A DNA stretch of 32,000 nucleotides from an uncultured archaeon (GCA_964510585.1 CAZECW010000157.1:21063-53062); one strand, 5' to 3'. Counted from the stretch's first letter, positions 10,707 through 21,697 are shown. Notes: generated from the sequence alone by a model not told the origin. Program-made: numbers and translations.

Positions 10707-11210
10707 TTATTTAATTTCCATAATTTTTTTCCTGAAATCATCCAAATCTACTTCGTATATTGTCCGGCTCTTAAGTGTGATAATATTTTTTTCTATCCCT
10801 ATGTATCCATTTTCTTCCAAGATTTTGAGGTTTCTTCGAAGTTGTTCTTCACCCATTTTTTCCTTGAGAAAGTTTAGCTCTTCCCTCTCTATCGGAGCTC
10901 CTTTTTCAAGAATCAAGGCCAGAATCACTGCCAGTGTAGCTGTTACAGACCTATCTCCCAGAAAACTGGGAACTAGGGATGAGCCTAAATCGTTTACCGC
11001 AATTACCCATCTTCTCTCTGAGGGGATGTATTTTAATTGGAGGCCAATTTCCTTCAATTTGTCTTGTAGCGTATTTAGAAGGTCTTGTAGGTGGGACTCG
11101 TCCTCCTCGTTTGAGAGGAATATTTCGCGTAATTCTTCGGATGTGATTCCTGGCTTTTTCCCGTGACTCAGTAGTAGGAGTAGGGAGAGTAGCTGGAGTT
11201 CTGTTGACAT
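10707..11210 (-). CDS. KITE subunit (tandem winged helix; ScpB/Nse3-MAGE-like)
   Basis: Two wH-like halves. TATLAVILALILEKGAPIEREEL and LKSRTIYEVD resemble the MAGE/Nse3 WH-B. Last gene of the SMC operon, 1 nt after the kleisin. Confidence 0.75.
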   Translation of the reverse strand: MSTELQLLSLLLLLSHGKKPGITSEELREIFLSNEEDESHLQDLLNTLQDKLKEIGLQLKYIPSERRWVIAVNDLGSSLVPSFLGDRSVTATLAVILALILEKGAPIEREELNFLKEKMGEEQLRRNLKILEENGYIGIEKNIITLKSRTIYEVDLDDFRKKIMEIK

Positions 11211-11211
11211 T

Positions 11212-11844
11212 TTAGGCTTCCTCGAGAAATCTTTTATTTCCTTCAGATATTACCTTAATTTTTTGGCTGTCCAAAAGGAAGGTGAAGGCCATAAATTTTC
11301 TAACCGTCTCCTCCCAGTTTTCGCCACGAATAATTCTGTGGAGTTCGGCTTTCTTTAACTCCCGCAGGAGATTTAGAAAATTTTTCACGATATCCATGAA
11401 GGATGGTTCATCATAAAAGTTTATATTGTCTGCCTTTACTTCAGTCTTTACCTCCGGTGGGAACTCTAGGGAGGCATACTCACGCCCTTTTAGAAATTTA
11501 AGTGAGTAGATTAGACCCGCTGTGGTTACGAGGTTCAATTTTACCACAGGGCGTAGTTTAATAAGATTTGAGAGAGAGTCTATGTCGAGCCCTTGAAGCT
11601 TATTTTTGAGGTTCTCACCAGTTGGAAGATCGGGAAAAAGTAGTTTATATGCTTCATTAATTTTTTTCTCGTGAACCATAACAAGACCATATAGGGCCTC
11701 TGAGTGCTCCAATATTTTGGAGTCTGTATTGGAAAGGTTTTCCTGGAGCTCGACTGCGTACTCATAGATGGGAATACTGAAAGGATTAGTGTCACCCTTC
11801 AGAACACTCATACACTCTTTGATGATCTCAGAGACTTTTTTCAT
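11212..11844 (-). CDS. Kleisin (ScpA/Nse4-like)
   Basis: N-terminal NPFSIPI plus helices; C-terminal ETVRKFMAFTFLLDSQKIKVISE resembles the kleisin cap-binding wH. 7 nt downstream of the SMC gene. Confidence 0.75.
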   Translation of the reverse strand: MKKVSEIIKECMSVLKGDTNPFSIPIYEYAVELQENLSNTDSKILEHSEALYGLVMVHEKKINEAYKLLFPDLPTGENLKNKLQGLDIDSLSNLIKLRPVVKLNLVTTAGLIYSLKFLKGREYASLEFPPEVKTEVKADNINFYDEPSFMDIVKNFLNLLRELKKAELHRIIRGENWEETVRKFMAFTFLLDSQKIKVISEGNKRFLEEA

Positions 11845-11851
11845 AGGAGCT

Positions 11852-19860: not shown

Positions 19861-20177
19861 TGTTTAACCACCAACAACTCAACTAGTAAGTGTAAATCTT
19901 ATTACATGTATTCAAAGGTAGATGAACAATTTAAAGTCTTCTCATAGAAATCTAGCTACCAGAAAGAAAACCTAGTTCACGGACAGCAGCTTCGAGTGAA
20001 GTGCAACCTATAATGAGAGATGTTCTGATCCACATTTCCTATTTCTAAAAAATGGACCTATTTGTGTGTTTCCAGCCAAAAAGTGTTTGTGAAAAGTAAA
20101 AAAAGGGCGTAAAGCGTGAGTCTATCTGTCCTTTTTTTAACGAAAACTAGTTGTGGAGTCTTTTGAAAATTTGTTAT

Positions 20178-20867
20178 TTATTTGGTGAGCCATCCATATT
20201 TTTTGTATGTTTTAATTCCTTCTTTTGATTTTAGGAATTGAATGAATTTTTTCGCCGTGTCTTTGTTTTTGCAGAAGGTGGTTGTTGCTATTAGGGTGCT
20301 TCTGTAAACTTGTGCTTCTTTGGGGATTTCGATTGCGTCGAATGTTTTGGGGTGTAGAGCTTTGTAGGTGTTCCAGCCGAATGCTGCGTCCACCTTTTTT
20401 TTGACTATGGAGCCTAGTAGTTCTCCGCATCCGTCTGCGAAAAGTTTTATGTTTTTTTGTATTTCTTGTGTAAGTGCGGTTTTGCTGGTTATTTCGTCCC
20501 AGACTCCCTTTAGACTGTCTACTGTGGATATGGCGATTTTAATGTCTTTTTTTGTTAAATCGCGGAGGGATCTTATTTTTTGGGGGTTACCTTTCTGTGT
20601 CAAGATCACTGATCTTCTGTAGCCTAGGATGCATCTGGTTTCTATATCTATTAAATTATTTTTTTGTAGTTCATCCATTATGTATGCTGCTCCACAGGTG
20701 AAAACATCGCAGAGTCCGGTTTCGATTCTGGGAATTATTTCAGATGGTAAACCTATGGTGTATTTGAGTTCCACGCCACATATTTCTTGAAATCTTTTTC
20801 CAGAAATTTTTAGGGGAGTGGCAACATCGCAGCAAGAACAAATATTCAAAACCTGCTTCTGAGACAA
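20178..20867 (-). CDS. ModA-like (type II periplasmic-binding fold) protein without a signal peptide
   Basis: CDVFTCG, KGNPQKIRSLRDL, GKVDAAF-like and YRSTLIAT segments fit the ModA family. GAGGAG before TTG 20867. Confidence 0.7.
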   Translation of the reverse strand: MSQKQVLNICSCCDVATPLKISGKRFQEICGVELKYTIGLPSEIIPRIETGLCDVFTCGAAYIMDELQKNNLIDIETRCILGYRRSVILTQKGNPQKIRSLRDLTKKDIKIAISTVDSLKGVWDEITSKTALTQEIQKNIKLFADGCGELLGSIVKKKVDAAFGWNTYKALHPKTFDAIEIPKEAQVYRSTLIATTTFCKNKDTAKKFIQFLKSKEGIKTYKKYGWLTK

Positions 20868-21031
20868 ATATTTTCTCCTCTTTCACGGAAGTTCAGAGTT
20901 GTCAATAGTTTTATAATAAAATCTAATAAGATATGCATCATATAGGAATAATGGATGAAAGTGTATATTATTTGTGGCTCTGTTATTTGAGAAGGTGGCG
21001 CGTTCACTTAATTGTTCGGTGGGGAAAACTT

Positions 21032-21697
21032 ATGGTTGATGTTAGGATTTATCCTTTGACTCTTGCTAAGATTATTAGGCATAGTACAATGTTTTCGGGT
21101 ATTGAGGTGGCAGGTGTTTTAATTGGGAGATTGGTAGATGGTGTAGTTGAGATTTCGGATTCGGACACTGGCCCGCAGATTGGTACAACGGGCCATGTTA
21201 AGCTGGCGAGGGCTGTGGCGCCACTCATTGCTGAGAAGCTTCATAGACAGGGGAGGAGTGATTACATTGTTGGATGGTATCATTCGCATCCGGGGTTTGG
21301 CTGTTTTCTTTCTCCAATTGATGTGGAGACCCAATCGGGGCTTCAGAAGATGTTTCCCCAATGCGTAGCGTTGGTCGTTGACCCTTATGAATTCATTATT
21401 TCGGGCCGCCCACGCGACGCAAAAATCGAAATGTTTAGAGTTCAAGAGGGTAGAATTGTTACACTGGAATATGAGGTTGTTTTTGAGACTGATAAGATTA
21501 TCAGAAACTTTATTGATAGCTTAGAGAGGGGCGAGGATCAATATGTAACTTCTTTAGATAAAATTAGGTTAGAGTTTTACGAATGGAATAGAAAGTTGGA
21601 AGAAAAAGTAGGTTTTGTTACTGAGGAAATCAAACAAATACGTGAAGAACTGGCAAACATTCTTGAAGTACTGAAGCAGGGTAGACAAATATCCTAA
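21032..21697 (+). CDS. JAMM/MPN+ metalloprotease (Rpn11/AMSH-like) with C-terminal coiled coil
   Basis: EVAGVLIG and GWYHSHPGFGCFLSPIDV (E...HxH-x7-S-x2-D). Start ATG 21032 after GGTGGGG (track start 20933). Confidence 0.92.
   Translation: MVDVRIYPLTLAKIIRHSTMFSGIEVAGVLIGRLVDGVVEISDSDTGPQIGTTGHVKLARAVAPLIAEKLHRQGRSDYIVGWYHSHPGFGCFLSPIDVETQSGLQKMFPQCVALVVDPYEFIISGRPRDAKIEMFRVQEGRIVTLEYEVVFETDKIIRNFIDSLERGEDQYVTSLDKIRLEFYEWNRKLEEKVGFVTEEIKQIREELANILEVLKQGRQIS

Follow-up and report, generated by a model that had tools for sequence, protein, structure and literature searches.

Ubiquitin conjugation and the complexes built on SMC5/6-related structural maintenance of chromosomes (SMC) proteins are both known as eukaryotic-signature systems of Asgard archaea. 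To our knowledge, the archaeal ubiquitin cascade has so far been tied only to ESCRT and protein turnover, and we know of no regulators of the archaeal SMC5/6-related complexes. The latter are encoded by a second, noncanonical type of archaeal SMC operon that is linked to a kite subunit and called SMC5/6-related (bioRxiv 10.1101/2024.01.07.573240; PMC8665677), and the widespread Asgard partner of the ubiquitin operon is ESCRT (PMC9192718, PMC10936438). In eukaryotes, SMC5/6 carries RING-type ligases (PMC8750328), of which the Nse1 RING is regarded by van Hooff et al. as a eukaryotic gain (10.1101/2024.01.07.573240). We analyzed a 32,000-nucleotide (nt) stretch of DNA from an uncultured archaeon (GCA_964510585.1 CAZECW010000157.1:21063-53062; the window), in which a block of approximately 11 kb (positions 10707-21697) places a minus-strand, four-gene SMC operon next to the genes of a ubiquitin cascade. 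The window comes from contig C157 of a 3.78-Mb assembly that is 96% complete, and its proteins have close homologs that their sources name Candidatus Jordarchaeum, Freyarchaeum, or Jordarchaeaceae. The original prediction, made from the sequence of the window, listed AAA, SMC, kleisin, and kite genes, three RING proteins, E1, E2, ubiquitin, a ModA-like gene, and a JAMM protease and read their linkage as the sign of an ancestral, DNA-directed ubiquitin pathway. All of the listed genes were found to be present, by Pfam matches and, for the kite, by fold and, for the kleisin, by position, an ortholog at another locus, and Atlas neighbors; the observation is confirmed, and its interpretation is partly supported. 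We propose that the locus is a composite module derived within Jordarchaeaceae, in which a fusion gene and an E1 bearing a helix-hairpin-helix (HhH) domain make it plausible that ubiquitylation and the SMC5/6-type complex are functionally linked, a reading drawn from sequence comparison to which we give slightly less than even weight. The locus is a new arrangement of two already known systems.

Five further genomes of the genus, including a closed one, have the identical gene arrangement, at protein identities down to approximately 74% in the closed genome. It also occurs in a more divergent lineage, represented by two JGI contigs, and in several independent hot-spring metagenomes, and because of this recurrence it is not an assembly artifact. 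Synteny extends into the flanks in most of the genomes compared within the genus. In the lineage found to have diverged furthest, with a kleisin 66% identical, the genes on both flanks differ and the block is intact from the JAMM gene to the kite gene. Within Jordarchaeaceae, the linkage is conserved more strongly than background synteny. The expectation that this neighborhood would be conserved across Asgard genomes held within the family and failed elsewhere. Among 200 other Asgard genomes, E2 and kite genes could both be located in 33, which represent at least six families, and in none of these 33 did they share a contig. In family f7, in which the kite operon is present, an E2 match was obtained in 0 of 43. 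Ten kite-SMC loci outside Jordarchaeaceae, taken with 6 to 10 kb of flank, were searched with profiles for RING, E1, E2, ubiquitin, and JAMM genes, and none of the ten contained any of them; in four control loci, the same profiles missed none of these genes. The sister family, f2, has an AAA-like-SMC-kleisin-kite operon that lacks the coiled-coil module described below and carries its ubiquitin operon on another contig, and the other Asgard ubiquitin operons either lie alongside ESCRT genes or stand alone. The linkage between SMC and ubiquitin genes is a specialty of Jordarchaeaceae and is derived, not an ancestral Asgard trait.

This distribution bears directly on the proposed ancestral pathway, according to which the linkage would be a relic of an Asgard DNA-directed ubiquitin system that foreshadowed Nse1 and Nse2 on SMC5/6 as well as the pairing of FANCL with UBE2T. 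Although the RING ligases of eukaryotic SMC5/6 have a counterpart here in the RING ligases adjoining an SMC5/6-related operon, and although one of these has a FANCL-like architecture, the ancestral reading is largely refuted by the phyletic pattern: the two loci share a contig in 0 of 33 other genomes, cascade genes are missing from all ten kite-SMC loci in a profile search whose positive controls were detected, and the sister family keeps the two systems apart, its SMC operon being without the coiled-coil module. Furthermore, the widespread partner of the ubiquitin operon is ESCRT, the window kite has no RING, and the Nse1 RING is held to be a eukaryotic gain. The long branches of the window E1 and E2 and the restriction of the E1 insert to this cluster also go against great age, and we consider an ancestral origin very improbable. 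As the link is derived, it provides no evidence on the content of the archaeal ancestor of eukaryotes, and the case shows the limit of gene-neighborhood reasoning.

The first gene of the SMC operon carries the physical junction between the two systems. Its product consists of an N-terminal coiled-coil module (approximately residues 6-110), a degenerate classical AAA+ domain (Pfam AAA, PF00004, 2.6e-25; AAA_lid_3, 4e-8), and a conserved C-terminal tail. Families f7, f16, and f2 have an AAA-like gene of 276 to 357 amino acids (aa) directly upstream of, and co-directional with, the kite-linked SMC gene, and these orthologs share the AAA fold, the lid, and the conserved tail with the window protein. 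In at least four Asgard families, the kite-SMC operon opens with a conserved, degenerate AAA+ gene, which is not mentioned in the two papers on SMC evolution (10.1101/2024.01.07.573240; PMC8665677). Copies of this gene lie at L045:9101-10168, L047:8663-9736, L049:13273-14292, L044:9287-10117, and window 14332-15723. Proteins encoded upstream of the SMC-like gene in Bathyarchaeia were considered as further members and were rejected, as they are not AAA-like. The fusion protein keeps Walker A and the lid. In all Jordarchaeaceae copies, Walker B reads DN instead of DE, and the pore loop has no aromatic residue; at Walker B and pore loop 1, the fusion protein departs from the active classical AAA+ ATPases of the Cdc48/Vps4/FtsH clade. 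Walker A itself has been lost from the f7 orthologs.

The N-terminal module is missing from the f2, f7, and f16 orthologs and is joined to the AAA-like protein in Jordarchaeaceae only. The first 100 or so residues of the fusion protein are homologous to a coiled-coil protein that four Asgard families encode beside the small RING gene (pairwise E value, 1e-8), with homologs in the Odin-like G011, in G021 and G138, and in a second ubiquitin cluster of the genus itself (cluster 2; the window copy is referred to as cluster 1). The motif TPx[AG][DE]VPTV is common to the fusion N terminus and the free-standing proteins, and it occurs twice in the six-frame translation of the genome, once in the fusion protein and once in the presumed cluster 2 coiled-coil open reading frame (ORF) on contig C168. 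The fusion gene is divergent from the small RING gene, as is the free-standing coiled-coil gene elsewhere. No lineage has an interruption in the fusion ORF, and its N-terminal motif is invariant at 66 to 95% overall divergence. The coiled-coil protein of Asgard ubiquitin operons is probably asCOG005522, an uncharacterized family reported in Asgard Ub/UEV-Vps23 clusters (10.1101/2023.07.25.550441). Sequences of this type lie at window 15400-15708, L035:10945-11397, L038:7949-8749, L040:6725-7174, L041:11846-12307, and G000 C168 near 20124.

A canonical SMC-ScpA-ScpB operon is also present in the genome, on contig C60, and therefore the window carries a second SMC operon. Its neighboring genes touch or overlap, the stop of the fusion gene overlapping the SMC start by 19 nt. 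In the SMC, the SMC_N match covers residues 7-818 and SMC_hinge residues 347-458, and Walker A (GxxGxGKT), the signature (SGGEK), and Walker B (DE) are all readable, giving the split ABC head and hinge of SMC proteins proper. The long coiled-coil arms of such proteins (approximately 300 or more residues per strand) are absent: head and hinge are separated by approximately 175 residues on each side, and at 832 aa, compared to 1052 to 1182 aa in other Asgard kite-linked SMCs, the protein has arms of about half the normal length. In a maximum-likelihood tree of noneukaryotic SMC head domains, a 16-row clade with support of 97/95 comprises the Asgard kite-linked SMCs, the Jordarchaeaceae SMC, and Bathyarchaeia forms and is separate from the canonical SMC clade. 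Within the tree, the Jordarchaeaceae SMC groups with hingeless Bathyarchaeia forms and not with the other Asgard copies. The SMC5/6-related nature claimed for the operon is supported by this placement in the kite-linked noncanonical clade (10.1101/2024.01.07.573240; PMC8665677). The label itself rests on the cited phylogenies (van Hooff et al.; Yoshinaga & Inagaki), and in a phmmer comparison of the window SMC to the PDB, Smc heads scored better (to 1.7e-38) than Smc5/6 (1e-16).

The two remaining subunits were assigned by other means. The AlphaFold2 model of the kite (pLDDT, 88.1) has two tandem winged-helix domains, and its best Foldseek matches are ScpB, Nse3, Nse1, MAGE, JetB, and MukE, the top 30 being nearly all kites; the fold matches ScpB and Nse3/Nse1 about equally well. 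Pfam SMC_ScpB is matched by 7 of the 23 members of the kite family, and homologs accompany kite-linked SMCs across Asgard archaea and Bathyarchaeia. With this predicted fold, the 167-aa protein is classed as a kite. For the kleisin-like protein, Pfam and PDB searches gave no match, and its AlphaFold2 model is poor (pLDDT, 47.6). Its gene occupies the position between SMC and kite genes that ScpA has on C60, and a distant ortholog in L042 is 24% identical over the full length (E value, 3e-6). Its neighbors in the Atlas by language-model features are Asgard hypothetical proteins (0.97) and a cluster with Nse4_C in 18% of its members (0.92), with eukaryotic Nse4 (0.83) and ScpA (0.81) further out. 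The 210-aa protein is probably a kleisin of the Nse4 type. The operon thus resembles the described archaeal SMC5/6-related operons (10.1101/2024.01.07.573240; PMC8665677) in standing beside a canonical SMC-ScpAB operon, in its SMC-kleisin-kite order, in a kleisin and kite that escape the ScpA and ScpB models, and in the clade of its SMC head. It differs from them in its far shorter SMC with half-length arms and affinity to the hingeless Bathyarchaeia forms, in a first gene that carries a module of the ubiquitin operon, and in adjoining a ubiquitin cascade.

Two other SMC candidates were set aside. SMC-like matches of approximately 815 aa in the sister family were rejected as orthologs, since none of the other genes of the window flank them, and they are probably Rad50; P0027, an 832-aa hinge SMC beside Cdc48, was rejected as a parallel because it falls in the canonical clade. 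In one of the Bathyarchaeia loci, L028:7344-13273, the order is two unannotated genes (358 and 488 aa), an SMC-like gene without a hinge (675 aa), a 253-aa gene, and a kite homolog. The locus adjoins Orc1/Cdc6 and the PolD large subunit, so that a replication origin is possibly near.

On the ubiquitin side, the parts of a eukaryote-type cascade can all be recognized by sequence: a beta-grasp modifier with GG, an E1 with the Uba1-like Cys, a UBC E2, RING proteins, and a JAMM protease. Like the described ubiquitin operons of Caldiarchaeum and Asgard archaea (PMC5654768, PMC6043591), the cluster combines a short tail after the GG, a Uba1-like E1, a UBC E2, a small RING with a conserved N-terminal loop, an Rpn11-like JAMM, and a companion coiled-coil protein. 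Unlike the Asgard ubiquitin-ESCRT clusters (PMC9192718, PMC10936438, 10.1101/2023.07.25.550441), it is a second, divergent copy with no ESCRT linkage; it has three RINGs, an (HhH)2 insert in its E1, and a coiled coil fused to an SMC-operon gene, and a UEV-type fold is found in its double-UBC-RING ligase instead of in a UEV-Vps23. In the PDB, the E1 is closest to the active adenylation domain of Uba1 (2.6e-41), its catalytic Cys178 aligning to the CTLR motif. A 68-residue insert, at about residues 183-250, lies just after this cysteine. Cluster 1 E1s alone carry it (383 aa), and all other E1s compared have 312 to 354 aa. When a profile of the insert was compared to the PDB, Rad51 N-terminal domains came first (E value, 0.006) and other HhH proteins next, and HHH_5 matched the ortholog in the closed relative G005 at 1.4e-5 and the window copy at 0.006. 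This is modest but consistent support for a Rad51-N-terminal-like (HhH)2 domain of DNA-binding type, and the HhH that had been read in the E1 stands at that level. In trees of E1 and E2, the window copies are on long branches, which is consistent with a new function; the trees do not settle the source of cluster 1.

The conservation of the block could also be explained without any cooperation between its halves. Cluster 1 would then be a general-purpose paralogous conjugation system, serving, for example, proteostasis or another lineage-specific target, that landed by the SMC operon in the Jordarchaeaceae ancestor, and the coiled-coil/AAA fusion would be a tolerated by-product. In its favor, none of the other Asgard families examined has the linkage, the syntenic flanks in most compared genomes of the genus mean that part of the conservation is ordinary synteny, and the ubiquitin genes form several transcription units on both strands, with only the fusion gene belonging to the SMC operon. 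Neutral juxtaposition fits less well with a block that outlasts the turnover of its flanks on both sides, with a fusion ORF that has stayed intact with an invariant N-terminal motif in the face of the overall divergence, and with a DNA-binding-type domain acquired by the E1 of cluster 1 only. We regard it as a tentative yet substantial alternative, somewhat improbable on the whole.

Starting from what is directly established, namely, the gene identities, the operon structure, the fusion, the E1 insert, and the phyletic restriction, the composite module would have arisen by the joining, in Jordarchaeaceae, of two units that other Asgard archaea keep apart. One would be a four-gene SMC operon for an AAA-like pseudo-ATPase, an SMC5/6-related SMC, an Nse4-like kleisin, and a kite; the other would be a second, fast-evolving copy of a ubiquitin operon for a small RING, pro-ubiquitin, E2, and E1, with a divergently transcribed coiled-coil protein. 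In the simplest history, the ubiquitin operon copy landed beside the AAA-like-SMC operon, and an in-frame fusion joined its coiled-coil gene to the AAA-like one. The E1 would later have gained its Rad51-N-terminal-like (HhH)2 domain by the catalytic cysteine, two RING ligases, of the double-UBC-fold and HExxH-protease types, would have been added, and the JAMM protease and a cytoplasmic ModA-like protein would have become fixed in the block. In the resulting pathway, Ub-GGF would be trimmed by the JAMM protease to expose the GG end, and the HhH-bearing E1 would activate ubiquitin on or near DNA and then charge the E2. The coiled-coil module of the AAA-like subunit would recruit the RING and E2 components to the compact SMC ring loaded on DNA, where subunits of the ring or proteins trapped with it on DNA could be ubiquitylated, and the HExxH-RING protein and the JAMM protease may process or reverse the mark. 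That the fused coiled-coil/AAA-like subunit docks the E1-E2-RING cascade, with its E1 tethered to DNA by (HhH)2, onto the DNA-loaded SMC5/6-type ring is the more specific part of this proposal, and we advance it as a possibility that falls clearly short of an even chance.

Several points weigh against the composite reading. The association is limited to one family, and the adjacency could be a neutral rearrangement that persisted. The AAA domain is probably dead for hydrolysis, and an unfoldase role is unlikely for it because of its DN Walker B and the lack of an aromatic pore-loop residue. Support for the HhH insert is borderline, the HHH_5 match of the window copy being under the Pfam cutoff and the Rad51 match having the same E value. 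The coiled-coil fusion by itself does not tell what is recruited, and the ModA-like gene has no obvious place in the proposed scheme.

When compared to eukaryotic SMC5/6 with its Nse1 and Nse2 subunits, the locus shares an SMC5/6-type ring, an Nse4-like kleisin, a kite, and a genetic tie to RING ligases, and E3 activity brought to a DNA-loaded SMC ring would be a possible parallel. It differs in having one SMC, presumably a homodimer, and one kite gene, whose product lacks a RING; no SP-RING protein is docked on the arm, and the tie consists of gene neighborhood and the AAA-like subunit. Because the locus is restricted to one archaeal family, its tie is at most convergent with that of eukaryotic SMC5/6 and its ligases. 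If the docking reading is true, this archaeon would ubiquitylate chromosome-bound proteins, and the locus would encode a ubiquitin ligase system coupled to SMC, the first in a prokaryote; the partnership of SMC5/6 with Nse1 and Nse2 would then have been invented independently here. The Jordarchaeaceae proteins, which are probably thermostable given their hot-spring source, form a compact set for asking whether ubiquitylation targets DNA-bound SMC complexes outside eukaryotes, and they bear equally on the roles of the conserved AAA-like subunit and of the coiled-coil protein of ubiquitin operons.

Wadjet and eukaryotic SMC5/6 sense foreign or extrachromosomal DNA, and the bacterial CBASS-Cap2/Cap3 and Bil systems mark proteins. 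The block might by analogy be an antiplasmid or antivirus module in which the SMC5/6-like ring senses such DNA and the ubiquitin cascade marks invader or host proteins. As in Wadjet (JetABCD) and MukBEF, an SMC is combined with a kleisin and a tandem-winged-helix kite, and JetB and MukE are among the structural matches of the latter. Fast evolution of E1 and E2, an enlarged E3 repertoire, and flanks that vary between lineages would suit a defense function. In a PADLOC search for known defense systems (Wadjet, Lamassu, and CBASS Cap2/Cap3), the matches were at the superfamily level only, linking the SMC to mad3, LmuB, and JetC, the AAA protein to IetA and TRIP13, the E1 to Cap2-type E1-E2, and the JAMM to JAB, with none for the kleisin, kite, or E2; these matches are generic, and none is at the level of a system. 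Partner proteins specific to these systems, such as LmuA or an E1-E2 fusion with a cyclase, did not turn up. In contrast to Wadjet, JetA and JetB sequence matches and a JetD-type nuclease are absent, the block contains no nuclease or other effector gene, and the hinge and head are of the SMC type, not the MukB type. Moreover, the block is single copy and is present in all sampled Jordarchaeaceae rather than patchily, its base composition is unremarkable, and the kite-SMC operon is widespread and housekeeping-looking in Asgard archaea. We consider a defense role unlikely.

The features of the block and the evidence for each are given in Table 1.

Table 1. Genes of the SMC-ubiquitin block, in window coordinates
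Feature	Position	Strand	Evidence
Kite subunit, 167 aa, last SMC-operon gene	10707..11210	-	Predicted fold; Foldseek; SMC_ScpB matches of homologs
Kleisin-like subunit, 210 aa, probably Nse4 type	11212..11844	-	Position; L042 ortholog; Atlas neighbors
Compact SMC, 832 aa, hinge present	11852..14350	-	Pfam SMC_N 1.5e-43; SMC_hinge 5e-13
Coiled-coil/AAA-like fusion, first SMC-operon gene	14332..15708 (ORF to 15723; 15708 is the probable start)	-	Pfam AAA
Small RING E3, 74 aa, divergent from fusion gene	15835..16059	+	Pfam zf-RING_16 1.5e-6
HExxH metalloprotease domain plus C4HC3 RING	16087..16794 (ORF to 16809)	-	Peptidase_M48; zf-RING_2
E3 with two catalytically dead UBC/UEV/RWD-like folds plus C4HC3 RING	16943..17824	+	UQ_con; RWD; zf-RING_2
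Eukaryote-type E1, 383 aa, putative (HhH)2 insert, C-terminal ubiquitin-fold domain	17862..19013	-	ThiF 1e-60
E2, UBC fold, HPN...Cys present	19043..19522	-	Pfam UQ_con 1.8e-32
Pro-ubiquitin, 81 aa, C terminus GG-F	19615..19860	-	Pfam ubiquitin 1.6e-11
ModA-like periplasmic-binding-protein fold, no signal peptide	20178..20867	-	SBP_bac_11 8.5e-33
JAMM/MPN+ metalloprotease, Rpn11-like	21032..21697 (ORF from 20933)	+	Pfam JAB 5.7e-18; HxH...S..D motif

The small RING aligns with the small RINGs of other Asgard ubiquitin operons, conserved N-terminal loop included. The second His of its HxxH zinc-ligand pair is replaced by Glu, and this position is His in all other Asgard small RINGs compared. 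The protein with two UBC-like folds and a RING, which had been called FANCL-like, has Pfam matches to UQ_con (1.7e-6), RWD (5e-5), and zf-RING_2 (1e-5), and it is also matched by the E2/UEV profile that we built. In the Atlas, Asgard RWD/UEV proteins are nearest, followed by eukaryotic FANCL clusters (language-model score, 0.90; structural TM, 0.42). Like FANCL, it has Cys-less UBC/RWD-like folds followed by a C4HC3 RING, and FANCL is, as a lead, its nearest annotated eukaryotic look-alike. The FANCL-like label applies to the architecture only, and the defining signatures of FANCL were not found: FANCL_C is matched at 1.2e-3, below the cutoff, FANCL_d2 and FANCL_d3 gave no match, the PDB sequence search returned no FANCL, and there are two UBC-like folds only, with no ELF domain. 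The RWD-RING layout also occurs in RNF25 and listerin. Since the closest relatives are Asgard RWD/UEV proteins, the double-UBC-RING architecture probably arose from the Asgard UEV lineage.

The HExxH-RING protein, which is kept across Jordarchaeaceae, is matched by Peptidase_M48 (8.3e-7, above the cutoff, over the HExxH stretch only) and zf-RING_2 (1.8e-4). The likeness to SPRTN/Wss1 that had been suggested for it did not hold up: the SprT-like match (0.017) is below the cutoff, and PDB and Atlas searches gave no informative relatives. Orthologs of the JAMM protein align from residues 27-34 onward, and the protein is presumed to act as the pro-ubiquitin-processing enzyme and as a deubiquitinase. 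The ModA-like gene, originally described as unrelated to its neighbors, is co-directional with the ubiquitin, E2, and E1 genes and lies between the JAMM and ubiquitin genes in every Jordarchaeaceae lineage; it may not be an unrelated passenger. The start of the E2 is unusual in that a conserved N-terminal helix (window 19433-19580) is encoded upstream of the first ATG, GTG, or TTG. The frame is open back only to an ACG right after an in-frame TAA, at which a short ATG-initiated ORF stops, and this layout is kept across the genus.

Cluster 2 of this genome, on contig C60, is plainer and consists of RING, ubiquitin, E2, and E1 genes. Its counterpart in G005 is accompanied by a gene for a 153-aa coiled-coil protein, transcribed divergently, and lies near CTP synthase, as does the ubiquitin cluster of the sister family. 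An Odin-like genome (1.42 Mb) has a ubiquitin operon and coiled-coil protein beside UEV-Vps23, Vps28, ESCRT-II, Vps4, and ESCRT-III genes, in agreement with published descriptions (PMC9192718, PMC10936438). Cluster 2 is only 18 to 22 kb from the canonical SMC-ScpA-ScpB operon (G000 C60:392-2552 and 24039-28706; G005 1964780-1986582). The occurrence of an SMC operon near both ubiquitin clusters is probably a coincidence; the SMCs concerned belong to different clades. We considered a recent segmental duplication that would have taken in the canonical SMC and cluster 2 and rejected it, as the SMCs are only approximately 25 to 28% identical and fall into those separate clades. Beyond the JAMM end of the block, an ArsA/Get3 ORF (window 23048-23938) starts inside the P-loop, its Pfam match beginning at profile position 13. 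Homologs of this protein and of an unannotated 250-aa protein (window 21830-23938 for the pair, compared to L035:761-6725) lie within 10 kb of the Odin-like ubiquitin-ESCRT cluster, which hints at old synteny on that flank.

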